Assembly: GCA_022797295.1 (NCBI GenBank) | Contig: JAAWKH010000007.1 | Coordinates: 1,338-65,337 of the forward strand | Length of the DNA stretch: 64,000 nucleotides | Origin: Peptococcaceae bacterium | GTDB lineage: Bacteria; Bacillota; Dehalobacteriia; UBA4068; UBA4997 | Direction of reading: 5' to 3' | In this document: positions 3,203-54,870 of the stretch, in pieces | How the letters are laid out: each line of letters opens with the position of its first letter | How positions within the stretch are numbered: the stretch's first letter is position 1 | The notes under the pieces: model-generated | What the model was told of the DNA's origin: nothing | The model's database searches: none | The model's input: the letters and a program-made list of their open reading frames with translations, nothing else | Made by a program: the position numbers and the translations under genes

Positions 3203-6200
3203 ATGAAGAAACACAGCTTTTTGCGCCGTTTTTTAACGGCCCTGGCCTTGTTTGGCCTGCTGGCTGTGCCGCAATCTGCCTTTGCGGCCTCGGATTTGCC
3301 CAACAACCATTGGGCCGCCAGCACCATCAACGGCTACATCTCCCGCGGCATTATGTCTGGCTATCCAGACGGCACTTTCCGGCCGGAGGCCTCAGTCACC
3401 CGCGCTGAATTTGTCAAAATGGTGAACAGCGTGTTTGGCTACAACACACCGGCCAGCATTAGCTTTGGCGATGTTAAAAGCTCCTATTGGGGCTACAATG
3501 AAATTGCCAAAGGCGTAATGGCCGGCTATGTCAATGGCGACGAAAACGGCAACTTCAACCCGGACGCGCCCCTCACCAGAGAGGAAGCCGCATCCATCAT
3601 CTGCCGGATTAAAGGCCTGGCCCCCAATCAATCCGCCATCTCCAATTACATTGATAGCGGCCGGATTGCCACCTGGGCCAAGCCATATGTTGGCGCGGCC
3701 ACTCAGGCCGGCTATATGACGGGCAGCGGCGACGGCCGTTTCAACCCCCAAAAGGCCCTAACCCGTGCGGAGGCCGCCGCGGTGCTGGCCAAAGCGGAAT
3801 CCCGCCAAACCAGCAGCAATTCTGGCACATATGAACCAAACAACAACGTAATCCACAACACCACTAGCAGCAGCTCCAACAATTCCAGCAGCAGCTCCCG
3901 CGTGTCCGATTACACAATGAGCAACAATGAAAGCACTCTTTCCAACAAAACCATCACCGGCAATTTATATTTGCCGTCTGGTTTGGGCTCCAAAACAGTA
4001 AACCTGCGCAACCTGACCGTTGACGGCACTGTTTACGTGCGCGGCGGCGGCACCATCAACGTTGACGATTGCGATTTCAACAAAGTGGTGCTGGATAAAT
4101 CTGGCGTGCGCTTTGAAACCGACAGCCGTTGCAACGTTGACCGGCTGGAGTTTTGGCGCAACGGCACCATTGAGGGCCAGGGCTATGATAATGTTATCAT
4201 CTCGGATAACTCCGTCAGCTCCGCCACAGTGAACGCCAAGGTGGAAAACCTGCTGCTGGACACCGACGCAGACCTCTATCTGGGCCGCAACGCCCGCATA
4301 GATGAGCTTGAGGCCACTTCCAGCTCCGATGACGCGGTTATCCGCTTCAACAGCAACGCTGAGGTGGATGAAATGAACATCTACGATCATATCGAGATTA
4401 AAGGCTCCGGCGAAATCAACAAAATGAACTGCTATTCCTCTGGTATTTATTCCAGCATTCGCCCCGACCGGGTGACAACCTCTGGCTCCGGCAAACGCCC
4501 CACCTACACCGACGACGATGACGACGATGATGATAACAGCTGGGGCAGCGGCGGCAATAATAATAACAACAACAATAACAATAATAACAACAATACCACT
4601 ACCAACGTTAAGGACTTGGTTGTGTCCAGCAATGTTGACGGCAGCAGCAAAAAAGGCAACACATCATACGACACGGTGAAAGTTACCAATTCCGGCGTTA
4701 CCGTTAAAAATATTGTGGTTGACAAAAACCTGACCATTGAAGCATCCGTTGGCGATGGCACCGTGACGTTTGAACACGTGACGGTTAAAGGCCAGGTGTA
4801 TATCCACGGCGGCGGCCAAAACTCCGTCATCTTCTCCGATTGCACCCTGGAAAAGGACGTTTACATTGACAAAAAGCCCACCAATTCCATCAAACAACCG
4901 ATGGGCTTGAAGCTGAACAACGGCACCACATTGAAAGGAACAATTCACATCACCAACAACGCCCACATTTCCACCAGCCCCAAGGAATATCAGATTAATA
5001 ACGTGGTGATTGACGGCACCCTGACCGAGCCGGTGCTTATCAGCGCAAATATTAGTAAACTTTCGGTTGAATCCAGCTCAGAGGTAACTTTGGTTTTGGA
5101 CGACTGCACAATCAGCAGCCTTTCCGCAAGCTCCAACAAGAAAATCACCGCCAAAGGCAAGGGCAACATTGAAGATATTTCCGGGGTTTCCAATTTTGAA
5201 ATTCCCAAAAAAGAGGGTTCTGAAGAAAAAGAAGAGGTGAACCTGCCCAACCTGAAGCCGATTATTGACATTAGTGGTGTTCCCAGCACCATCGAAGCCA
5301 AAGCTGTTGTGGATTTGAACACCTGCCAGGTGAAATATGCCGATAACAGCACCGGAACCATAACCAACGCCACCTGGACGGTTTCCGACGATACGGCGAA
5401 TGTTACTTTAAGCAACAATTCGCTGACCGCCGCCCAACCAGGGAGCTTTAAGCTAACCGCCACAGTGGCCAACGGCAAAGGCATTGGCGAGGCCTACATT
5501 CAGGAATTTTCACCCACCAACGTTACCAAGGAGTTTGTCGAGGTTACGGATATTGTTGCCACAATCCCACCCACCTACACTTTGAGTGAAACTGCGAAAA
5601 ATGAAATTGCTCTTTCGGCAACAGTCAAGCCGGAAAATGCCAGCAACAGAACGGTAGTCTGGTCGGTAACCGGCGGCGACGGCGCTAAAGTTGAAGGCAG
5701 CAAACTTGTTTTAACCGGAAAAGGCAGTTACACAGTGACCGCCACCGTGAACAACGCCAAAGCCGACGGCAGCAGTGTTTCCAAAAAATTCAATATCAAG
5801 GTTGAGGCTCCTTATTGTCCAGTGGGAGATATTGAGTTAACCAGTTTGACGTATAACGAAACCGAAAAAGCATATACCGCATATGCAGGCAGTGATTTCA
5901 CATTAAGCGCCAAGGTTAACCCGCCAAAAGACAAACCGAACACCACACCCTCGCAATCCACCATTAAATGGGAAATTGTTAGATCGGATGACAAAACACT
6001 CGCCATCTCCGGCAACCGCATTTCCCCCAAAATCCCCGGCCAAATTGTTCTTAAAGCCACGGTGGCCGGCGGCAAAGACAACGGTGCGGCAAACTATGAA
6101 CAGGAAATAATCATCAACGTTAAGGCCTCTTTGATTGGCGATATTATTGTAGACCCGAAACAAAATAGTTACTATCCTGGGCAAACCATTGAGCTTGATT

Positions 6201-8588: not shown

Positions 8589-9518
8589 ATGCGAAACCAA
8601 AAACCTATACTAAACACCAATGAACAAATTGCACATCTACAATCTAAAGGAGTTAAATTCAATTTAATATCTGTTGATGAAGCAAAAAAATATCTGGAAC
8701 TTAACAATAACTATTTTAAATTAAGAGCTTACAGAAAGAATTTTCCCAAACATCCTGACGGCCCATTAAAAGGTCAATATATCAACCTAGACTTTGCAAT
8801 GCTAAAGGACTTAGCCATAATTGATATGCACCTGCGCTATCTTCTTTTGCAAATGTCTTTGGATATTGAACATTTTGCCAAGGTTCGTCTACTAAAAGCT
8901 ATTGAAAACAACAACAACGACGGCTATTCAATCGTAATCGACTATATTGACTCCTTATCACCACAAAGAAAGCGAATTTTGCAAGAGGAGCTTGCACGTA
9001 ATCAAAATAATCCATATTGTGGTGGTATTATTTCCAAATACAACGGCTGTTATCCAATTTGGGCTTTTATCGAAATAATAACATTCGGTACGCTTATTCA
9101 TTTATATGATTTTTGTATAACAAAACTATGTCTAAAAAAAATGAAAAGTGATTATTACCTTTTAAGCACAATTCGTGAGCTTCGCAATGCAGCAGCTCAT
9201 AACAACTGCTTTATTTACGATATGAGTGCAAATGATGCCCAGCATAAGCCAGACCCTAAAATGTTAATGGCCCTAAAAAACATCCCTACAACAACAAAAC
9301 AAAAACGTTTTAAGAATGAGCGCACAAGACAAATTATAACCTTGCTATACACGCACAAAACATTTGTTAGTAGTCAGGGAGTTTTTAGCGCAAGAAAAGA
9401 AGCGCTTAACAAACTAATTGAACGGATTTTCCATCATATTGATTATTATGCTGATAATAAAATGATTCTTTCCAATTTTAACTTTTTGAAAAATGTTGTT
9501 GACATTTTATATCCTTAA
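8589..9518 (+). CDS. Abi family abortive-infection protein (Abi_2 / AbiD-AbiF-like).
   Basis: 309 aa in an AT-rich island. The N-terminus (KPILNTNEQIAHLQSKGVKF) and the overall architecture resemble the Abi_2 family, which typically begins KPFLTYEEQIELLKSRGL. The codon usage is atypical for this genome. Confidence 0.6.
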   Translation: MRNQKPILNTNEQIAHLQSKGVKFNLISVDEAKKYLELNNNYFKLRAYRKNFPKHPDGPLKGQYINLDFAMLKDLAIIDMHLRYLLLQMSLDIEHFAKVRLLKAIENNNNDGYSIVIDYIDSLSPQRKRILQEELARNQNNPYCGGIISKYNGCYPIWAFIEIITFGTLIHLYDFCITKLCLKKMKSDYYLLSTIRELRNAAAHNNCFIYDMSANDAQHKPDPKMLMALKNIPTTTKQKRFKNERTRQIITLLYTHKTFVSSQGVFSARKEALNKLIERIFHHIDYYADNKMILSNFNFLKNVVDILYP

Positions 9519-9885
9519 TAGTATAATATATATAGAGAAAAAAATATTATTATTTTTGCGGGGCAGAATTGTCTATTGTTAATAGATGATTTCGCCCTAT
9601 TTTTTTACTCAAATAATAGTAAATCTAAAAACTTTAATTAAAACGAAAAACCCCCGTTGCAGAGGGGGTTTTCGTTTTTCGTACTTGCTTAGTTGCATAG
9701 TCACCTTTTTAGTTCATTATTATTATACCACAACAACAAAGAAAATGCAACTGCTTTGAAGAAACATTTTACACTCCCGACTGGCCGCAAACACCGTTCG
9801 GCAAAATGTTTGCCTTTATCTTCAGGCTATGCTATAATTATATCGTTACCATCTCCAATTCTGGTGACAGGAGGGAGGTGTTTTG

Positions 9886-10014
9886 ATGCAGTTTTTGCTA
9901 ACTCTGTCTGCCGCTGTTATGGGCAATGTGATTTCGTATTACATAGTCAAATGGTTGAATAGCGGTAAAAAACATGGTAATCAGCCTAGAACAACGTCAA
10001 ATTGGAAGTTATAA
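9886..10014 (+). CDS. Fst/par-like type I toxin peptide (42 aa, C-terminally extended variant): MQFLLTLSAAVMGNVISYYIVKWLNSGKKHGNQPRTTSNWKL.
   Basis: A TGCTATAAT extended -10 at 9827-9835 and a GGAGGGAGGTG RBS precede the ORF. The hydrophobic helix plus YYI(V/I)KWL(N/D) motif is shared with the 8 other cassettes, and an intrinsic terminator lies at 10021-10055. Confidence 0.65.
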   Translation: MQFLLTLSAAVMGNVISYYIVKWLNSGKKHGNQPRTTSNWKL

Positions 10015-10020
10015 AACAGA

Positions 10021-10092
10021 AAGCCCCTTGGAATGGCACTCCAAGGGGCTTTTCTGCGTTTTGATACATGCTAACTCTGATTTTTTAACTCC
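10021..10092 (-). ncRNA. Putative antitoxin antisense sRNA (RNAII-like) for the toxin at 9886-10014.
   Basis: A minus-strand promoter TTGACA(10127-10122)-N17-TATAAT(10104-10099) lies just downstream of the toxin. The transcript would include GTTTTGATACATGCTAACTCTGA, which is complementary to the toxin TIR GTTTTGATGCAGTTTTTGCTAACTCTG, and would end at the shared bidirectional terminator 10021-10055. Confidence 0.5.
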
Positions 10093-10134
10093 GTCATTAT
10101 TATAGCATAGCCGCTGTTGTTTGTCAAGCCGCAA

Positions 10135-23892: not shown

Positions 23893-25329
23893 TCAGCGGT
23901 GATGCCTGCCGTGATGACCGCCCACCGCCTGGCTGGCATAATGATGCGTATGGTTCAGGGAACAATTCTGCGCACAGTAACCGCTTTGATAATGATGAGT
24001 GTGGCTCAAAGTGCAGTTCTGCGGGCAGTAACCATCCGCAGTTTGATAACAATGCGTATGGTTCAGCGAGCAATTTTGCGGACAGTAATCAGTCTGATAG
24101 TAGTGTGTATGGTTCAGCACACAATTTTGGGCACAGTAAACCGTCTGACTGGATACGCTGACCGCTTGCTGAGCGACACGGTGAGCTTGATTGTAGAAGT
24201 AATCCTGCCGTTCCGCCTGCATATCCAACACCTGACCGGTGTAGGCGTCCAACTCCAATTCATATTTCACAAAATTGTAGTAAATTTCCACATCGTAAAC
24301 CCAGCGGTCATCATCATATTCCAACTTTAGCTTGGTGATATTGTTCAGGCTGGAACCCGGCACCGCCCGCAAAGCAGCCGCCCGCGCGTCATCATTGCTC
24401 ATCACCTGGCTCTGGTTGGGATTTTGGTTTGACTGGCCGGGCTGAACAATCTGCCCCGCTTTGTTTTCTGTTTCCATCTTGAGTGTGGCGCCGGTGTAAG
24501 CATCCAGCTCCAGCTCATATTCCACAAAGTTGTAAAGCAGCTCCACCTCATAAACCGGGCGGCCATCGTCATAATCCAGCTTTAGCTTGGTAATATCACT
24601 GGCCGAAGCGCCGGAAACTATGCGCAAAGCAACCGCTCTGGCCTCATCCAAAGTCAGCATTACGCCATTGTTGTTTGAGCCGGGATTGGTTGTTCCGGGA
24701 TTAACCGGCTTGTTTGAGGTGTTGGAATTAAAGCTGTCCGCATCCGTCACCGTATTGCCGGAGCCAGTACCGCCATAAATGCTGATGGTGGAAGTGCGTC
24801 CGTCCCAATCCACATTTTTACCCATCAGCTCGCCAATCGAACGCAAGGGCAAATAAACCGAACCGTTGTAAAGCAACGGATAAATGGCAGTGCCGTCGGA
24901 ATTGGTGAAGCTGCGGCGCACGCCATCCATCATAATTGTAAAATCCGGGCGCAGCTGAGCCGTCACATATTGCCGGGAAGCCGACGTTACCCGACCGCTA
25001 GAGGGTGCCGCGGTGCGCTTGCCCTCCAGGCTGGCCGTCAAATTGGCCTCATCCCAGTTGACATTTTTGTTCATCAACTCGCCCATCGCCCGCAAAGGCA
25101 GATAAGTGCTGTTGTTGTAAACCAACGGATAAACCGGCTGTCCTGTTGAGTTAAAAAGGTTCTGGTTTACACCATCCACAACGATTTTATAATCGGGGTT
25201 CAACTGAGCTGTCACATTGGTGACGGTGGGGGCGGCGCTTACCACGCCAGCCGCTCCCAGCAAGGCAACCAACAGCAACATCACCAGCAACAGCATACTC
25301 CTCCGGGATTTCAGAATACGCATAAGCAT
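23893..25329 (-). CDS. Secreted protein with 2x copper-amine-oxidase-N-like (Cu_amine_oxidN1) domains, 2x PepSY domains and a C-terminal 4x Cys/His-rich repeat.
   Basis: Signal peptide, then the Cu_amine_oxidN1-type YLPLRAMGELMNKNVNWD and YLPLRSIGELMGKNVDWD. Two PepSY-like blocks follow (ITKLKL(D/E)YDD..VYEVE..Y...YELELDAYTG). The tail repeats YC(A/P)QNC(S/T/V)L(N/S)HTH(H/Y/C)YQ four times. Confidence 0.7.
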   Translation of the reverse strand: MLMRILKSRRSMLLLVMLLLVALLGAAGVVSAAPTVTNVTAQLNPDYKIVVDGVNQNLFNSTGQPVYPLVYNNSTYLPLRAMGELMNKNVNWDEANLTASLEGKRTAAPSSGRVTSASRQYVTAQLRPDFTIMMDGVRRSFTNSDGTAIYPLLYNGSVYLPLRSIGELMGKNVDWDGRTSTISIYGGTGSGNTVTDADSFNSNTSNKPVNPGTTNPGSNNNGVMLTLDEARAVALRIVSGASASDITKLKLDYDDGRPVYEVELLYNFVEYELELDAYTGATLKMETENKAGQIVQPGQSNQNPNQSQVMSNDDARAAALRAVPGSSLNNITKLKLEYDDDRWVYDVEIYYNFVKYELELDAYTGQVLDMQAERQDYFYNQAHRVAQQAVSVSSQTVYCAQNCVLNHTHYYQTDYCPQNCSLNHTHCYQTADGYCPQNCTLSHTHHYQSGYCAQNCSLNHTHHYASQAVGGHHGRHHR

Positions 25330-35938: not shown

Positions 35939-36015
35939 TGGCGTGCTACGAGGGATTCGAACCCCCGACCTTCTGGTCCGTAGCCAGACGCTCTATCCAG
36001 CTGAGCTAGTAGCAC
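35939..36015 (-). tRNA. tRNA-Arg (anticodon ACG).
   Basis: The reverse complement folds as a cloverleaf with anticodon loop CTACGGA, T-loop GGTTCGAATCC and a 3' CCA. Confidence 0.85.
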
Positions 36016-36031
36016 ATATATTTATTAAAAG

Positions 36032-36126
36032 TGGCGGAGAGCAGGGGATTCGAACCCCCGATACAGGTTTTTGCCCGTATACTCGCTTAGCAGGCGAGCG
36101 CCTTCGACCGACTCGGCCAACTCTCC
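36032..36126 (-). tRNA. tRNA-Ser (anticodon GCT), class II with a long variable arm.
   Basis: Reverse complement GGAGAGTTGGCCGAGTCGG...CTGCTAA...GGTTCGAATCC...CCA, with a long extra arm. Confidence 0.85.
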
Positions 36127-36142
36127 ATGTCAAGTGCGTAAA

Positions 36143-36231
36143 TGGCGGAGAGGGTGGGATTCGAACCCACGACACATTGCTGTGCGACGGTTTTCAAGAC
36201 CGCTCCGTTATGACCACTTCGGTACCTCTCC
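36143..36231 (-). tRNA. tRNA-Ser (anticodon TGA), class II.
   Basis: Reverse complement GGAGAGGTACCGAAGTGG...CTTGAAA...GGTTCGAATCC...CCA. Confidence 0.85.
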
Positions 36232-38933: not shown

Positions 38934-39136
38934 CCCAAAATATATTTTTGCTTTTAGTTTAACACAATATTAATCTAATTGCAACAATTATATTGATTTT
39001 TCGTCATAAAATTACTGTTGTTTTTATATTAGAACCCTAAATTATATTTTGATTTTTCTCCCAAAATATTCCATTTTATTACAAGTTATGTTATAATATA
39101 TTTGATTATCGCCTCTGGCAGATTGGAGGTGTTAAG

Positions 39137-39226
39137 ATGACTGTACTTTGTTCGATTGCCACTGTTATATTGGGTAATATAATCTCCTATTATATTATCA
39201 AATGGTTGGATAGCAGAATGCGATAG
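39137..39226 (+). CDS. Fst/par-like type I toxin peptide, cassette 1: MTVLCSIATVILGNIISYYIIKWLDSRMR.
   Basis: TGCTATAAT extended -10 at about 39106-39114 and a GGAGGTG RBS 7 nt upstream. One TM helix plus a basic C-terminus, followed by intrinsic terminator 39271-39300. Confidence 0.7.
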   Translation: MTVLCSIATVILGNIISYYIIKWLDSRMR

Positions 39227-39267
39227 ACAGCCTAGGTTTCAGGTCGTACCTACATATAAACGGCACA

Positions 39268-39337
39268 GAAAAACCCCCGTTGCAGCGGGGGTTTTTCGTT
39301 GTACATTTTTGTGTTAAAATGACCGCACTTTTTGTTC
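39268..39337 (-). ncRNA. Putative antitoxin antisense sRNA, cassette 1.
   Basis: Minus-strand promoter TTGACA(39372-39367)-N17-TATAAT(39349-39344). The transcript contains GTGTTAAAATGACCGCAC, complementary to the toxin TIR GTGTTAAGATGACTGTAC, and ends at the shared bidirectional terminator AAAAACCCCCGTTGCAGCGGGGGTTTTT. Confidence 0.55.
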
Positions 39338-39343
39338 ATCATT

Positions 39344-39372
39344 ATTATACCACCCGCTCACCCTTTTGTCAA
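39344..39372 (-). promoter_or_regulatory. Consensus sigma-70 promoter (TTGACA-N17-TATAAT) for the cassette-1 antitoxin RNA. The same promoter recurs in every cassette.
   Basis: Direct reading of the minus strand: TTGACAAAAGGGTGAGCGGGTGGTATAAT. Confidence 0.6.
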
Positions 39373-39580
39373 TACAAAAATCATCCTCCCATTTCTGAGA
39401 GGATGACTTCTTTATCTTAGTGCTTTGCCGCAGGCAGCTAGCACAAGATTAATCTTCATTTTACTTGCTGTTCAGCCCACGAACACATCTTACAAAATTT
39501 CTCCCAAAATATTCCATTTTATTACAACTTATGCTATAATATAGCTAATCTATCGCCTCTGGCAGAAAGGAGGTGTTAGA

Positions 39581-39673
39581 ATGATTCTACTTAGCACAAT
39601 CGCCGCAACTATCGTGGGTAATGTAGCTTCCTACTACATTATCAAATGGCTGGATAGTCGCAACAGGCGATAG
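39581..39673 (+). CDS. Fst/par-like type I toxin peptide, cassette 2: MILLSTIAATIVGNVASYYIIKWLDSRNRR.
   Basis: Same promoter/RBS architecture, with terminator GAAGCCCGGACTCCTACCTCCGGGCTTC at about 39697-39730. Confidence 0.7.
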   Translation: MILLSTIAATIVGNVASYYIIKWLDSRNRR

Positions 39674-39694
39674 CAGCCTGGGCCGAAGCAGTGC

Positions 39695-39778
39695 CTAAAA
39701 ACTGAATAGAAGAAGCCCGGACTCCTACCTCCGGGCTTCTTCGTTGTGCATTTTGTGATAGAATGATCCTACTTATTA
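39695..39778 (-). ncRNA. Putative antitoxin antisense sRNA, cassette 2.
   Basis: Promoter TTGACA(39813-39808)-N17-TATAAT(39790-39785) on the minus strand. It contains GTGATAGAATGATCCTACTTA, complementary to the toxin TIR GTGTTAGAATGATTCTACTTA. Confidence 0.55.
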
Positions 39779-39987
39779 CTTTTTTATTATACCACCCGCT
39801 CACACTTTTGTCAATAAAAAATTAGTTGTGCTTACCGCAGCCACTGAGCAGAAGATTAATCTTCGTTTTACTTGCTGTTTAGCCCACGAACACATCTTAC
39901 AAAATTTCTCCCAAAATATTCCATTTTATTACAACTTATGCTATAATATATTTGATTATCGCCTCTGGCAGATTGGAGGTGATATAT

Positions 39988-40077
39988 ATGTATTTCTTGT
40001 TATCCATAGTTTCTGCCGTTATTGGTAATGTACTTTCCAACTACATTATCGACTGGCTGAACGGTAGATGGCGATAA
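39988..40077 (+). CDS. Fst/par-like type I toxin peptide, cassette 3: MYFLLSIVSAVIGNVLSNYIIDWLNGRWR.
   Basis: TGCTATAAT at about 39943-39951 and a GGAGGTG RBS. Terminator at about 40112-40145. Confidence 0.7.
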   Translation: MYFLLSIVSAVIGNVLSNYIIDWLNGRWR

Positions 40078-40109
40078 TTCAGCCTGGGCCTAAGCTGTGC
40101 CTACAAACA

Positions 40110-40186
40110 GAATAGAAGAACCCCCGCGGCAACGGGGGTTCTTCGCTGTGCATTTTGTGATACATATGCATTTCTTGTTTATATCC
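40110..40186 (-). ncRNA. Putative antitoxin antisense sRNA, cassette 3.
   Basis: Promoter TTGACA(40222-40217)-N18-TATAAT(40198-40193). It contains GTGATACATATGCATTTCTTGTT, complementary to the toxin TIR GTGATATATATGTATTTCTTGTT. Confidence 0.55.
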
Positions 40187-40444
40187 GCAAATATTATAGC
40201 ACAATTCCTAACTCTTTGTCAAGCACTTTATCCCGCAAAGAAGTCATCCTCCCATTTCTGAGAGGATGACTTCTTTATCTTAGTGCTTTGCCGCAGGCAA
40301 CGAGCACAAGATCAATCTTCGGTTTGCTTGCTGTTCAGCCCACAAACACATCTTACAAAATTTCTCCCAAAATATTCCATTTTATTACAACTTATGCTAT
40401 AATATAACCAATCTATCGCCTCTGGCAGAAAGGAGGTGTATACG

Positions 40445-40537
40445 ATGTCCCTTATCTTTACATTCGCCGCAACTATCGTGGGTAATGTAGCTTCCTATTA
40501 CATTATCAAATGGCTGGATAATTGCATCAGGCGATAG
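40445..40537 (+). CDS. Fst/par-like type I toxin peptide, cassette 4: MSLIFTFAATIVGNVASYYIIKWLDNCIRR.
   Basis: TGCTATAAT at about 40395-40403 and a GGAGGTG RBS. Terminator 40575-40603. Confidence 0.7.
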   Translation: MSLIFTFAATIVGNVASYYIIKWLDNCIRR

Positions 40538-40574
40538 CAGCCTGGGCCTAAGCTGTGCCTACAAACAGAATAGA

Positions 40575-40640
40575 AGAACCCCCGCGGCAACGGGGGTTCT
40601 TCGCTGTGCATTTTGTGATACGATGCCCTTTATCTTTTAC
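40575..40640 (-). ncRNA. Putative antitoxin antisense sRNA, cassette 4.
   Basis: Promoter TTGACA(40675-40670)-N17-TATAAT(40652-40647). It contains GTGATACGATGCCCTTTATCTTTTAC, complementary to the toxin TIR GTGTATACGATGTCCCTTATCTTTAC. Confidence 0.55.
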
Positions 40641-40775
40641 GGTTATATTATACCACCCGCTCACCCTTTTGTCAATACAAAAATCATCCTCCCATTTCTG
40701 AGAGGATGACTTCTTTATCTTAGTGCTTTGCCGCAGGCAGCGAGCACAAGATTAATCTTCGGTTTACTTGCTGTT

Positions 40776-40921
40776 AACCTCGCAAGTACAGGTTTGAGTA
40801 AAATTTTTAATCGTCGTTTTCAATTTTTACGCCTTGCGGCGGAGCCTGCCTATATTGGCCTCCCGGCATGCTCAAGGGGAGCTGCCCCTGATTTTGAAAC
40901 CGGGCCAGTTTGTTTTTTAAC
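40776..40921 (+). repeat. About 146-bp structured repeat element, copy 1, inserted in the 5' leader region of cassette 5.
   Basis: About 93% identical to 41816-41950. It contains several stem-loops (GAGCCTGCC...GGCATGCTC; AGGGGAGCTGCCCCT; AACCGGGCCAGTT). It is absent from the equivalent position in the other cassettes. Confidence 0.75.
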
Positions 40922-41060
40922 CCTGTGTCGTCAGCTAGTAGCAATGTTAGTTACTTTGCTAGCCAACATTTTTCTTCCAAAATATTCCATATTTGCCCAA
41001 GCTATGCTATAATATATTTGCCGCAGTTCACATATATGCGGAGGAGGGAGGTGGGCGTAT

Positions 41061-41150
41061 ATGCTGAAGCTTTTACTAACTCTGCTCGGCACCGTACTTA
41101 CAAACGTAATTTCATATTACATTTGCAAATGGCTAGACGGTGATAAATAA
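41061..41150 (+). CDS. Fst/par-like type I toxin peptide, cassette 5: MLKLLLTLLGTVLTNVISYYICKWLDGDK.
   Basis: TGCTATAAT at about 41008-41016 and a GGAGGGAGGTG RBS. Terminator 41183-41213. Confidence 0.7.
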   Translation: MLKLLLTLLGTVLTNVISYYICKWLDGDK

Positions 41151-41182
41151 ACTAGCCGTGTGTAGACTACCTTAAAAGTTAG

Positions 41183-41250
41183 AAAACCCCCGTTGCAGCG
41201 GGGGTTTTCGTTTCCGTACATGCTTAACTTTTCCTAACTCTTTTTTGTTC
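41183..41250 (-). ncRNA. Putative antitoxin antisense sRNA, cassette 5.
   Basis: Promoter TTGACA(41286-41281)-N18-TATAAT(41262-41257). It contains TACATGCTTAACTTTTCCTAACTCT, complementary to the toxin TIR TATATGCTGAAGCTTTTACTAACTCT. Confidence 0.55.
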
Positions 41251-41488
41251 ATCCTTATTATACCACCCATACCACCCTTTTGTCAATACAAAAATCATCC
41301 TCCCATTTCTGAGAGGATGACTTCTTTATCTTAGTGCTTTGCGCAAGCACAAGATTAATCTTCGTTTTACTTGCTGTTCAGCCCACGAACACATTTTACA
41401 AAATTTCTCCTCAAAATATTCTATTTTATTACAACTTATGCTATAATATATATAATTCTATCGCCTCTGGCAGAAGGGAGGTGATTTA

Positions 41489-41581
41489 ATGAACTTATTA
41501 ATTTCCATAACCACTGCCGTAGTGGCAAATGTAATTTCCTATTACATTTGTAAATGGCTGGACGGCAGAAAAAGGCGGTAG
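41489..41581 (+). CDS. Fst/par-like type I toxin peptide, cassette 6: MNLLISITTAVVANVISYYICKWLDGRKRR.
   Basis: TGCTATAAT at about 41439-41447 and a GGGAGGTG RBS. Terminator 41617-41648. Confidence 0.7.
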   Translation: MNLLISITTAVVANVISYYICKWLDGRKRR

Positions 41582-41616
41582 CAGCCTGGGCCTAAGCTGT
41601 GCCTTAAAACAGAATA

Positions 41617-41688
41617 GAAAAACCCCCGCTGCAACGGGGGTTTTTCGCTGTACATTTTGTGATTCAATGAACTTATTAATTTATTTCC
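41617..41688 (-). ncRNA. Putative antitoxin antisense sRNA, cassette 6.
   Basis: Promoter TTGACA(41723-41718)-N17-TATAAT(41700-41695). It contains GTGATTCAATGAACTTATTAATTTA, complementary to the toxin TIR GTGATTTAATGAACTTATTAATTTC. Confidence 0.55.
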
Positions 41689-41815
41689 ACCATTATTATA
41701 CCACCCGCTCACCCTTTTGTCAATACAAAAATCATCCTCCCATTTCTGAGAGGATGACTTCTTTATCTTAGTGCTTTGCGCGAGCACAAGATTAATCTTC
41801 GTTTTACTTGCTGTT

Positions 41816-41950
41816 AACCCCGCAAGTACAGGTTTGAGTAAAATTTTTAATCGTCGTTTTCAATTTTTACGCCTTGCGGCGGAGCTTGCCTATTTTTGCC
41901 CCCGGCAAGCTCAAGGGGAGCTGCCCCTAATTTTAAAACCGGGCCGGTTT
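41816..41950 (+). repeat. About 146-bp structured repeat element, copy 2, after cassette 6 at the 3' flank of the array.
   Basis: Same element as 40776-40921. Here the long stem is perfect (GAGCTTGCC...GGCAAGCTC). Confidence 0.75.
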
Positions 41951-45216: not shown

Positions 45217-45892
45217 TTTCCTGTTTCCTCCTTATAAAGTTGGTGTAACGTTGACATCGGCTTCACGCAAGCCGATTTCTTCAAGCGCTCCCGCCAGCCC
45301 GTCGAATCTCCTTGTCCTTTTCAAAGGGCAACCCCTCATCAAGGCTTTTCAATTCCCGGCGAATTCGCTTTTCACCATAATTACATCCCTCGGTTCAAAA
45401 AACTTGCAGCTTTTTCAAAACTTTTTCAATTTTTTTTGAACAAGTTCTCCACAAGCTCCAAAACCAAGGCCCAACTTCACTTCCCGCAATTCCCCCGAGG
45501 CCGCCTAGCAACCTCCAGGCTGCCGCGCCAGCTTCGTTTTGCCGAATAACGAACCCCACGCAACCAACCCCCAGTCAACTTGGCGGTTTTGCAAAATCTG
45601 CGCAGCAAGCAAAGCCTGTCCTTATGTAGTGAAGAAAACGGTCAAACCTCCACCAATATCATATATATACTATCATATTACGCAAAAAAAAACAACCCTT
45701 TTTCCACAAAAAAATTAATTACACTCCTAGCAATTTACAATATATCTGCAAATTTTAATTTATCTGAAACACAAACCCAAGCAAACGTGATCATGTCAAC
45801 CGGCTTATTCCACAAACTTTCCACCACGCGCCCCACAAATCAACCCGCCAAACCCCTTGGCAAATCCGCCCCGCCAGTGCTATAATAACATC

Positions 45893-45968
45893 AGAATGAA
45901 AACAACGGGTTCATTTTATCACAAAAAAATGCGGAACGAAAAACCCCCGTGCCAGCGGGGGTTTTTAT
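45893..45968 (+). ncRNA. Putative antitoxin antisense sRNA for the minus-strand toxin at 46007-46096 (cassette 7).
   Basis: Plus-strand promoter TTGGCA(45857-62)-N18-TATAAT(45881-86) with a TGn extension. It contains TTCATTTTATCACAAAAAAATGCGGAACG, whose complement matches the toxin TIR, and ends at terminator AAAAACCCCCGTGCCAGCGGGGGTTTTT (45939-45968). Confidence 0.55.
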
Positions 45969-46006
45969 GTTGTTTATATGTAGGCACAACCTTAAGCCTA
46001 GGCTAA

Positions 46007-46096
46007 TTACCGCCGTCTGTCGTCCAGCCATTTGCAAATGCAATAGGAGATTACATTTACCAAGACACCAGTGACTATTGTAATTAACGGGTCCAT
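46007..46096 (-). CDS. Fst/par-like type I toxin peptide, cassette 7: MDPLITIVTGVLVNVISYCICKWLDDRRR.
   Basis: Minus strand, with RBS GAGGTGATAAG and a TGTTATATT extended -10-like box upstream at about 46120-46135 on the minus strand. Same peptide family. Confidence 0.65.
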   Translation of the reverse strand: MDPLITIVTGVLVNVISYCICKWLDDRRR

Positions 46097-46196
46097 CTTA
46101 TCACCTCAAATCTGCCTGAGGCGATAACTATATCTAATATAACACATTTTTCAACAAATTACAATTATAAATCTTATCTCGGACAATCCGAACATC

Positions 46197-46225
46197 TTGA
46201 CACAACCCCAAACCCGTGCTATAAT
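46197..46225 (+). promoter_or_regulatory. Consensus sigma-70 promoter (TTGACA-N17-TGcTATAAT) for the cassette-8 antitoxin RNA.
   Basis: TTGACACAACCCCAAACCCGTGCTATAAT read directly. Confidence 0.6.
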
Positions 46226-46231
46226 ATTAGC

Positions 46232-46313
46232 AGAGAATAATAGTAAGAGCATTTTTATCACAAAAAAATGCAAAACAAAGAACCCTGGCTGATTAGCGTC
46301 CCGGGGTTCTTTT
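46232..46313 (+). ncRNA. Putative antitoxin antisense sRNA, cassette 8.
   Basis: Downstream of the promoter above. It contains GCATTTTTATCACAAAAAAATGC, whose complement matches the cassette-8 toxin TIR GGTGATAAAAATGTTCT, and ends at terminator AGAACCCTGGCTGATTAGCGTCCCGGGGTTCTTTT. Confidence 0.5.
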
Positions 46314-46354
46314 ATGCTGTTTATATGTAGGCACAGCCTTAAGCCTAGGCTGAG

Positions 46355-46554
46355 TCATCGCCTTCTGCTATTCAGCCATTTTAAAGTGAAACTCAGTGAA
46401 ATCAAGCCGCAGGTGCAGATTGAACTGTAGTTGAACTAATGCCATAGTGCAACCAATTAAAATGAAATCCACTTTGTGATTTTCTATGGCAGATAATATA
46501 GTAGGAAGCCACATTACCCACAACTGCAGCGGCTATTGAGAAAAGTAAGAACAT
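46355..46554 (-). pseudogene. Fst/par-like toxin gene (cassette 8) disrupted by an insertion of about 110 bp.
   Basis: The N-terminus MFLLFSIAAAVVGNVASYYII is intact. After ATTATC a foreign segment of about 110 bp (46381-46491, containing the palindrome TGCCATAG...CTATGGCA) intervenes. The original C-terminus KWLNSRRR* (AAATGGCTGAATAGCAGAAGGCGATGA) lies out of frame at 46355-46381. Confidence 0.6.
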
Positions 46555-46677
46555 TTTTATCACCTCCAATCTGCCTGAGGCGATAACTATATCTAATATA
46601 ACACATTTTTCAACAAATTACAATTAAAAAGGAGCAAAAGGCAATTCCAAGCTTTTGCTCCTTTTTTTAATATTCTA

Positions 46678-54635: not shown

Positions 54636-54711
54636 GGACCATTAACTCAGTTGGTAGAGTAGCTGACTCTTAATCAGAATGTCCACGGTTCGAGTCCGTG
54701 ATGGTCCACCA
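54636..54711 (+). tRNA. tRNA-Lys (anticodon CTT).
   Basis: Cloverleaf with anticodon loop CTCTTAA, T-loop GGTTCGAGTCC and CCA. It is close to the Bacillus tRNA-Lys backbone, with a G27-A43 mismatch. Confidence 0.8.
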
Positions 54712-54714
54712 TAT

Positions 54715-54790
54715 GATCCATTAGCTCAGCTGGCAGAGCACCTGACTTTTAATCAGGGTGTCCCGCGTTCGAATCGCGGATGGATCACCA
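54715..54790 (+). tRNA. tRNA-Lys (anticodon TTT).
   Basis: Anticodon arm CCTGA-CTTTTAA-TCAGG, T-loop GTTCGAATC and CCA. Confidence 0.85.
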
Positions 54791-54793
54791 TCT

Positions 54794-54870
54794 GGCACGT
54801 TGGAGAAGCGGCTTAACTCACCAGCCTTTCACGCTGGCATTCACGGGTTCGAATCCCGTACGTGTCACCA
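54794..54870 (+). tRNA. tRNA-Glu (anticodon TTC).
   Basis: GGCACGTTGG...GCCTTTCACGCTGG...ACGGGTTCGAATCCCGTACGTGTCACCA strongly resembles Bacillus tRNA-Glu. Confidence 0.8.

Follow-up and report, generated by a model that had tools for sequence, protein, structure and literature searches.

We identified a tandem array of six head-to-tail cassettes, each about 440 bp long, on the plus strand of a 64,000-nucleotide stretch of DNA from an uncultured gut Peptococcaceae bacterium (contig JAAWKH010000007.1; the whole stretch is referred to here as the window, and all coordinates are positions within it). The array occupies 39.05–41.75 kb, in a single intergenic region of the chromosome, and its units (U1 to U6) are in all likelihood type I toxin–antitoxin (TA) cassettes of the par/Fst type. 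Three more cassettes lie elsewhere in the window, U7 on the plus strand (9.83–10.13 kb) and U8 (45.86–46.14 kb) and U9 (46.20–46.60 kb) on the minus strand, and a tenth, antitoxin-like copy without a toxin open reading frame (ORF) is found at 9640–9744. Eight of the nine toxin ORFs are intact, the interrupted one being that of U9. A six-copy plus-strand array had already been described in a reading made from the letters alone (the sequence-only reading), and all the elements described there are present. Its total of nine units was right, but it did not mention that the two units at 45.86–46.62 kb lie on the minus strand, that the U9 ORF is interrupted or that there is a tenth, toxin-less copy. 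All six array peptides are identical across four independent metagenome-assembled genome (MAG) assemblies, which means that the array does not stem from misassembly.

The par-like geometry of gene and antisense gene proposed in the sequence-only reading was confirmed, and it is strengthened by a feature not mentioned there: beyond the terminator, the translation-initiation region (TIR) of every unit is present a second time, as a direct repeat. The 37–46 nt between the terminator and the antisense −10 repeat the region next to the Shine-Dalgarno (SD) sequence, the start codon and the first six or so codons of the same unit. Transcription from the antisense promoter crosses this repeat in the opposite direction, so that the antisense RNA would be complementary to the toxin TIR in its 5′ part. 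The hallmarks of par are convergent promoters, a bidirectional terminator, the direct repeats DRa and DRb over the initiation site, a 5′ stem-loop (5′-SL) over the SD and a 5′ upstream helix (5′-UH); DRa/DRb are its defining feature, and the specificity of RNA II, the antisense RNA, has been attributed to variation in the direct repeats (PMC7472228). The predicted antisense RNAs of the window are 76–89 nt long, somewhat longer than the 70 nt or so first proposed, and the predicted toxin mRNAs about 195 nt. The two overlap at the terminator only, without reaching the ORF, and the interaction with the TIR falls outside the overlap. In T1TAdb, an antisense RNA that overlaps the 3′ end, spares the ORF and interacts outside the overlap is a property of the Fst/RNAII and SprA1 families only (PMC8594479).

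The pairing between repeat and TIR is specific to each unit. In a 9×9 RNAduplex matrix of each toxin 5′ region against each antisense 5′ part, cognate duplexes reached −31.5 to −40.4 kcal/mol, compared with a non-cognate mean of −14.5 (standard deviation 3.6), with the cognate partner at the top of each row and each column (permutation p ≤ 1e-5). The cognate duplex covers roughly −10 to +18 around the ATG, with its edges at −24/−9 on one side and +11/+23 on the other. Identity between units is 52% in this interaction region and 75% in codons 13–21. The N-terminal codons of the toxin and the distant repeat have thus changed in concert, a mark of selection for cognate specificity, and the nine toxin/antisense pairs are predicted to be largely orthogonal.

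The same architecture recurs well beyond the window. A family-wide test was made on 77 non-redundant loci from other genera, in which the duplex between the cognate TIR and the downstream region ranked first in 48 and among the top three in 65, with a few values inflated by the next tandem copy in the search window. A convergent promoter with at least 10 of 12 matching positions was present in 49 of the 77, against seven on the control strand. A hairpin followed the stop codon in 74 loci, and in 48 of the 49 promoter-bearing loci one lay between the stop codon and the antisense −10.

These results bear on the idea that the repeats are decaying selfish or duplicated DNA, or that the ORFs serve a downstream operon as leader peptides or attenuators. 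One interrupted ORF, one toxin-less copy and a rearranged locus in a related species would fit decay. However, the coordinated divergence of TIR and direct repeat largely refutes both versions, and the peptide motif, the promoter hexamers and the SD hairpin are conserved where the spacers and, in a coordinated manner, the interaction region have diverged. Every unit moreover has its own strong terminator and a convergent promoter facing it, which leaves no downstream operon to attenuate, and the architecture is conserved across many genera. We therefore give this explanation hardly any weight, and continue with the par/Fst-type cassette as the preferred reading.

The promoters of the two genes differ markedly in quality. 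An extended −10 (TGnTATAAT/TATATT) and a convergent promoter are both present in nine of nine units. The toxin promoter combines this extended −10 with a poor −35. An extended −10 had been claimed for every unit, and this held; the particular sequence given was not uniform, however, since TGCTATAAT is found in U2–U6 and U7, TGTTATAAT in U1 and TGTTATATT in U8 and U9. On the opposite strand just beyond the terminator, the expected TTGACA-N17/18-TATAAT promoter was recovered in all six array units, as a minus-strand TTGACA-N17/18-TGnTATAAT that matches the consensus at 12 of 12 positions in each. Across all nine units the antisense promoters match 11–12 of 12 positions, most with the TG extension. 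The array region holds 22 promoter-like sites, compared with 7.3 ± 2.6 in shuffled sequences, and 8 of the 14 exact TTGACA-N17/18-TATAAT sites in the whole window are antisense promoters of the cassettes. Between units, the hexamers of these promoters are 97–98% identical and the spacers only 32–45%. Hexamers conserved while spacers diverge imply that the antisense promoters are themselves under selective constraint.

A terminator hairpin, GC-rich, with a stem of 11–13 bp and A/T-rich arms, separates the stop codon from the antisense promoter in nine of nine units. The bidirectional terminator that had been described is thus general, except that the stem of U2 differs in sequence from those of the other units; in the plus-strand direction, the T-tract forms part of the stem arm. 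A second type of hairpin, CATCCTCCCATTTCTGAGAGGATG, is T-rich on both sides and lies immediately upstream of the antisense −35. Its five copies are at 39382–39405, 40245–40268, 40685–40708, 41296–41319 and 41733–41756, and it is missing at the U2/U3 junction. Judging from its sequence and position, it probably acts as a bidirectional insulator or terminator between cassettes.

The leaders of the array units are about 34 nt long. A conserved leader had been proposed for the array, and ATCGCCTCTGGCAGA is indeed shared by five of its six units; U5 and U7 have different leaders, and U8 and U9 carry ATCGCCTCAGGCAGA. In minimum-free-energy folds, the SD lies inside a 5′ stem-loop (TATCGCCTC…GGAGGTGATA) in eight of the nine units. 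The leader of U7 sequesters the SD with a different sequence, and that of U5 does not sequester it when folded on its own. An alternative pairing is available to the leader motif TATCGCC (for example at 39108–39117), which can pair with the last codons and stop of the toxin gene (GGCGATAG or GGCGATAA; for example at 39216–39228) at −7.5 to −15.5 kcal/mol. These helices were scored sequence by sequence, as a MAFFT alignment of the mRNAs mis-registers the 3′ element between 29- and 30-residue units. Stop-codon identity (TAG or TAA) and a leader nucleotide (C or T) covary, and in two related genomes (L007 and L009) a synonymous arginine change from CGA to CGC covaries with a leader change from T to G. 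The covariation between leader and stop codon in the window, L007, L009 and a locus of a related species (L019) suggests a conserved long-range 5′–3′ helix or switch. The helix may be a counterpart of the par 5′-UH or a conformational switch.

In the mechanism that we propose, the weak extended −10 promoter would produce an mRNA of about 195 nt encoding a membrane peptide of 29–30 residues, and the nascent mRNA would hold its SD in the 5′ stem-loop. [quoted passage not shown] We infer that both RNAs are made, with the antisense RNA in excess, and that the peptide is toxic. By analogy, a weak toxin promoter facing a strong antisense promoter would agree with reports that the antitoxin is in excess in the chromosomal parEF0409 and SprA1 systems (PMC7472228). 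The biological role may be stabilization of the locus or of a mobile element, a stress response, or protection against phages or addiction modules.

The array peptides have the form that the sequence-only reading ascribed to them, 29–30 amino acids with one transmembrane (TM) helix and a …SYYI(I/C)KWLD motif followed by R/K residues. Five positions are invariant in the nine peptides of the window (N14, S17, I20, W23 and L24), and W23 and L24 are invariant across 38 family members. The segment before the tryptophan has a grand average of hydropathy of 1.2–1.6, and two to five charged residues follow the tryptophan in the eight intact peptides. The signature of the Ldr/Fst superfamily is a hydrophobic TM helix, a conserved tryptophan and a charged cluster (PMC2887945; PMC7472228), and the predicted features of the window peptides (TM helix, W and charged tail) match it. 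The superfamily motif (P/D/S/T)xxxG(C) is approximated by (S/T/A)xxx(G/A) within the TM helix of eight of the nine peptides; the strict form (S/T)xxxG occurs only in U1, U3 and U8, and SxxxG is present in many members of the wider family. Among phage protein families (PHROGs), the sole match was to phrog_738, a family of unknown function (E ≈ 1e-4). One relative (P0110) has a precomputed match to PF28423.1, and this Pfam family, if a recent one, may already cover the peptides.

A link to an experimentally studied locus came from Rfam. At gathering scores, the Rfam search returned tRNAs only and reached no antitoxin family. SpF66_sRNA (RF02442) was the only model that aligned end to end (model positions 1–239) with the toxin mRNAs, at 25.9 bits for U4, 24.3 for U5 and 26.5 for U6; these scores lie below the gathering threshold of 42, and a 226-nt search gave E = 9e-5. 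Set against window positions 41457–41660, the RF02442 consensus contains an SD followed by a 32-codon ORF of the CKWLD type, whose translation is MSLILELVLTIIADVIAGIILYFVCKWLDGKE. The family profile matched this SpF66 peptide in hhalign with a probability of 97.7% (E = 1.4e-12, 43% identity over 28 columns), and the best NCBIfam match of the SpF66 peptide is itself Fst (18.9 bits, E = 9.6e-4), below the 26-bit cut-off. F66 (srn502) is a Northern-confirmed RNA of 239 nt from the SP2168–SP2169 intergenic region of Streptococcus pneumoniae TIGR4, with F67 adjacent to it (PMC3395615), and F67/srn503 has been annotated as a type I toxin of the Fst family (PMC12323649). In S. pneumoniae, Fozo et al. 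reported a tandem pair of Fst homologs in the interval from fcsR to adcA, with an antisense RNA of 65–75 nt at the 3′ end, and found Fst-B to be toxic in E. coli (PMC2887945). F66 and F67 would thus be the Fst-A and Fst-B mRNAs, and within the Fst/Ldr superfamily the window toxins would fall into a divergent "CKWLD" clade. The translated consensus further indicates that the Rfam SpF66 "sRNA" is a type I toxin mRNA and not a non-coding RNA. Literature under the name SpF66 consisted of malaria vaccine papers only, and a literature search with the peptide motif found nothing relevant.

Several results weigh against the par/Fst assignment. A search with hidden Markov models (HMMs) of the Fst and Ldr toxins had been suggested in the sequence-only reading, and the peptides did not reach the curated thresholds. 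On the NCBIfam model NF033608 (type_I_tox_Fst) they scored no more than 12.8 bits, with a cut-off of 26, whereas the controls FstEF0409 (36.3 bits) and FstpAD1 (34.7 bits; both sequences from PMC8147318) passed. Their best match among the Pfam toxin families, PF13940 (Ldr_toxin), stayed at or below 19.3 bits against 27 (E = 0.0012), and the NCBIfam model of Clostridioides difficile toxins, NF047374, gave 13.6–17.8 bits against 60. The peptides had no match to Pfam PF13955 (Fst_toxin) either, a test that is uninformative because the genuine FstpAD1 (22.8) and FstEF0409 (12.6) also miss its 36-bit cut-off. In hhalign, the family profile reached 8.7% against FstEF0409, with W-L-D/E in register, and 2.5% against FstpAD1, neither of them significant, and a PDB sequence search with the window peptides gave no match. 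The U-turn motif YUNR, which nucleates the kissing of par RNA I and RNA II and which a review describes as not universal (PMC7472228), was found in only two of the nine terminator loops, those of U8 and U9. The identity of F66 with Fst-A would follow from the matching intergenic context and from coordinate offsets that we worked out. Finally, with the U9 ORF disrupted and one antitoxin copy lacking a toxin, not every copy need work. As the curated models were not reached, membership in the family rests on the superfamily signature together with the SpF66 peptide.

Members of the peptide family are common in other genomes and on mobile elements. A profile search, with a query alignment headed by the 42-residue peptide of U7, returned 173 clusters, nearly all unnamed, of which two were labelled 'toxin [Caudoviricetes sp.]'; single clusters were found on 735 and on at least 1000 contigs. 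Species-representative genomes yielded 90 confirmed loci, in Lachnospiraceae, Veillonella, Gemella, Faecalibacterium, Anaerococcus, Ruminococcus, Selenomonadaceae and others. The family is also present on at least 80 viral contigs and on 65 plasmids, many of them small, with no annotated feature at any plasmid match. A copy on the Enterococcus faecalis plasmid pE035 lies between the mob/pre and rep genes, and both this copy and one on an Aerococcus plasmid are complete in architecture, their direct-repeat duplexes reaching −39.9 and −42.4 kcal/mol.

This distribution is relevant to whether the peptides inhibit growth at all. They might instead be membrane peptides under cis-antisense control that modulate, for example, a membrane process. 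The tandemly repeated YhzE-2 of Bacillus subtilis is not toxic when over-expressed (Fozo et al., PMC2887945), the roles of chromosomal Fst/Ldr loci are obscure and their antitoxins in vast excess (PMC7472228), and the failure of the window peptides to reach a curated toxin HMM would fit such a role as well. We nevertheless consider it an improbable explanation. Plasmids and viral contigs are typical sites of addiction modules, Fst-B, a paralog of the S. pneumoniae relative, is toxic in E. coli (PMC2887945), and a double repression by an SD hairpin and a consensus-strength antisense promoter would be expected for a harmful product. Toxic peptides of the par/Fst type remain the reading that we favor.

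With six tandem cassettes, and nine plus an orphan within 64 kb, the window is at the high end of copy number. Among type I TA loci, tandem duplication as such is a known hallmark, and it served Fozo et al. as a search criterion (PMC2887945). The other fetched loci of the same peptide family have two to four tandem copies (tandem copies are frequent in the genomes elsewhere, with three in L007, four in L069 and several pairs), and at most four copies are reported for zor/orz (PMC11264685). To speak of an unusually high local dosage, as the sequence-only reading did, is therefore fair. The start-to-start distance between toxin ORFs in the array ranges from 407 to 619 nt. A repeat search of the array region recovered six-copy repeat families, and Tandem Repeats Finder (TRF) did not detect the array there because the period is long and variable and the units are divergent. 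A repeat of about 180 nt at 40775–40965 (plus strand) has a second, 93% identical copy at 41815–41950, so that one copy follows U4 and the other U6; it had no Rfam match and no credible ORF. The first copy accounts for the longer spacing from U4 to U5, and the repeat suggests that the array grew by a segmental duplication that took in its right flank.

The first unit, U1 (39089–39372, plus strand), has its −10 (TGTTATAAT) at 39089–39097, its leader with the 5′-SL at 39104–39136 and its ORF (MTVLCSIATVILGNIISYYIIKWLDSRMR) at 39137–39226. These are followed by the bidirectional terminator at 39268–39297, the direct-repeat copy of the TIR at 39298–39337 and the antisense promoter at 39344–39372 on the minus strand, from which an antisense RNA of about 39260–39337 (minus) is predicted. 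U2 (39532–39814, plus) has the −10 at 39532–39540, the leader at 39547–39580, the ORF (MILLSTIAATIVGNVASYYIIKWLDSRNRR) at 39581–39673, the terminator at 39709–39742, the repeat copy at 39743–39779 and the antisense promoter at 39786–39814 (minus). The third unit, U3, extends from 39939 to 40222 on the plus strand, with the −10 at 39939–39947, the leader at 39954–39987 and the ORF (MYFLLSIVSAVIGNVLSNYIIDWLNGRWR) at 39988–40077, then the terminator at 40115–40144, the repeat copy at 40145–40186 and the antisense promoter at 40193–40222 (minus). U4 (40395–40675, plus) comprises a −10 at 40395–40403, a leader at 40410–40444, an ORF (MSLIFTFAATIVGNVASYYIIKWLDNCIRR) at 40445–40537, a terminator at 40573–40602, a repeat copy at 40603–40640 and an antisense promoter at 40647–40675 (minus). 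In U5 (41005–41286, plus), the unit with a divergent leader, the −10 is at 41005–41013, the leader at 41020–41060 and the ORF (MLKLLLTLLGTVLTNVISYYICKWLDGDK) at 41061–41150; its terminator lies at 41182–41209, its repeat copy at 41210–41250 and its antisense promoter at 41257–41286 (minus). The array ends with U6 (41439–41723, plus), whose −10 occupies 41439–41447, leader 41454–41488, ORF (MNLLISITTAVVANVISYYICKWLDGRKRR) 41489–41581, terminator 41617–41646, repeat copy 41647–41688 and antisense promoter 41695–41723 (minus).

Outside the array, the isolated U7 (9830–10127, plus) adjoins an Abi_2 gene and has its −10 at 9830–9838, its leader at 9845–9885 and a C-terminally extended ORF of 42 amino acids at 9886–10014, followed by the terminator at 10019–10054, the repeat copy at 10055–10092 and the antisense promoter at 10099–10127 (minus). 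The two minus-strand units read towards lower coordinates. U8 (45857–46144) has its −10 (TGTTATATT) at 46136–46144, leader at 46097–46129, ORF (MDPLITIVTGVLVNVISYCICKWLDDRRR) at 46007–46096, terminator at 45939–45966 and repeat copy at 45893–45938, with a plus-strand antisense promoter, TTGGCA-N18-TATAAT, at 45857–45886. U9 (46197–46603) has its −10 at 46595–46603, its leader at 46555–46588 and the start of its ORF at 46554. Its coding sequence runs to …ASYYII, is broken by an insertion of 109 nt and resumes out of frame with KWLNSRRR. The terminator of U9 lies at 46277–46312, its repeat copy at 46232–46276 and its antisense promoter (plus) at 46197–46225.

The insertion in U9 (46383–46491, minus strand) folds into two hairpins at −31 kcal/mol and splits the ORF after codon 21. 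All four strain assemblies contain it. A copy with 89% identity was found in L019 at 3648–3757, in a different paralog and at the same codon junction (…YII^(K/E)WL…), and in both interrupted units, that of L019 and U9, the cognate antisense gene is intact. Cassette remnants of L019 hold two related elements (3300–3385 and 3995–4085), each about 85 nt long and with the termini GTTCAACTACAG...CTGAGTTTCAC. The locus in L019 is rearranged and has in addition a toxin-less antitoxin like that of U8. Among the fetched loci, only the window locus and L019 contain the 109-nt element; a relaxed Rfam scan with it gave no match, and a scan of metagenomes for its termini found nothing. The element may be of a small site-specific or MITE-like type (resembling a miniature inverted-repeat transposable element).

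The solo antitoxin-like copy (9640–9744, minus strand) consists of a terminator at 9640–9675, an antisense-like segment and a promoter read by eye, TTGCAT-N17-TGgTATAAT, at about 9716–9750. Positions 9647–9731 are 82% identical to the terminator and antisense gene of U5. The orphan converges on a perfect plus-strand promoter, TTGACA-N17-TATAAT, at 9499–9527, from which a transcript of about 145 nt is predicted that folds at −44 kcal/mol and has no credible ORF. No target above background was found for the orphan antisense RNA among the toxins of the window. Directly upstream of the orphan and U7 ends an abortive-infection-like gene, Abi_2 (PF07751), at 8589–9518.

Such copies invite the view that the array is mainly an 'anti-addiction' or immunity bank, whose antisense RNAs neutralize incoming homologous toxin mRNAs of plasmids or phages, or that the cassettes are triggers of abortive infection. 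The mechanism would be as proposed above, with selection acting on another component. The solo antitoxin-like copies at 9640–9744 and in L019, the disrupted U9 ORF beside an intact antisense gene and direct repeat, the position of U7 and the orphan next to Abi_2 and the frequency of the family on plasmids and viral contigs are all compatible with it, and antitoxin-only loci are known for zor/orz (PMC11264685). Yet only one of the nine toxin ORFs is disrupted, the peptides of the other eight are identical across strains, each antisense RNA best matches its own neighbor, the orphan has no target above background among the toxins of the window, and no candidate incoming target was identified. We regard immunity or abortive infection as the main function of the array as very unlikely. 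A more specific proposal, which we hold to be doubtful, treats the array as a bank of orthogonal pairs whose antisense RNAs, including the toxin-less ones, would be kept as immunity against plasmid or phage toxins; separately, the 109-nt element would target the YYII^KW junction as a mobile 'toxin breaker' or a conditional intervening sequence.

The genes around the array are of the housekeeping type, and include purA, ndk, pckA, sbcCD, a phosphoglucomutase-family gene and genes for an SLH-domain protein and a C_GCAxxG protein. Farther away in the window are two clusters of three tRNA genes each, at 35942–36231 (minus) and 54636–54867 (plus); in TRF, the second cluster gives rise to a tandem-repeat signal of 79 nt. 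Inside a long minus-strand ORF (23893–25329), positions 23944–24143 hold a tandem repeat of 51 nt (3.8 copies, 69% matches).

The par/Fst-type array can be compared with several known systems. Like pAD1 par and parEF0409, its units have convergent promoters, a shared terminator, oppositely transcribed direct repeats over the SD and start codon, a 5′ stem-loop on the SD and no overlap between antisense RNA and ORF. They differ from par in having one direct repeat of about 25–30 nt in place of separate DRa and DRb, and in that the YUNR U-turn is mostly missing and six cassettes stand in tandem. The peptides resemble Fst in their length of about 30 residues, TM helix, W-L-(D/E) and charged tail, but do not have the (A/V)PI(F/I)VG core. 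Pneumococcal Fst-A/B share the peptide family and the tandem duplication, with an antisense RNA of 65–75 nt at the 3′ end; there are two copies there against six here, and the hosts are Bacilli as opposed to Clostridia/Peptococcaceae. The SprA1/SprA1AS (PepA1) system of Staphylococcus aureus, a type I system of the Fst family, likewise combines a 3′ overlap with an antisense RNA that acts in trans on the TIR, its antitoxin being in large excess (PMC8594479, PMC7472228). Unlike the array, SprA1 is a single locus on a pathogenicity island, and no sequence-level match between the two was found. The prophage- and CRISPR-associated toxins of C. difficile are also small, with a hydrophobic N-terminal part and a charged C-terminal part, are often found in prophages and show weak, sub-threshold similarity (E = 0.003–0.07), but have about 47–56 residues, lysine-rich tails and a different antisense overlap (PMC6563280). 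Tandem cassettes in one intergenic region with divergent cognate pairs are shared with ldr/rdl, ibs/sib and zor/orz, the last of which has orphan antitoxins (PMC2887945, PMC11264685); in these enterobacterial loci, an antisense gene is placed at the 5′ end or upstream of it, and one array usually holds two to four copies.

The array is a large one of a known kind of element and involves no new mechanism. As a set, the six-plus-three divergent cassettes offer natural, predicted orthogonal RNA–RNA pairs for studying how antisense specificity evolves with the N-terminal codons of the toxin. Beyond the window, the widespread and almost wholly unannotated …SYYICKWLD… family would represent par/Fst-type type I modules, carried by Bacillota of the gut and mouth and also by small plasmids and phage contigs, and it is now connected to the experimentally studied Fst-A/B locus of the pneumococcus.

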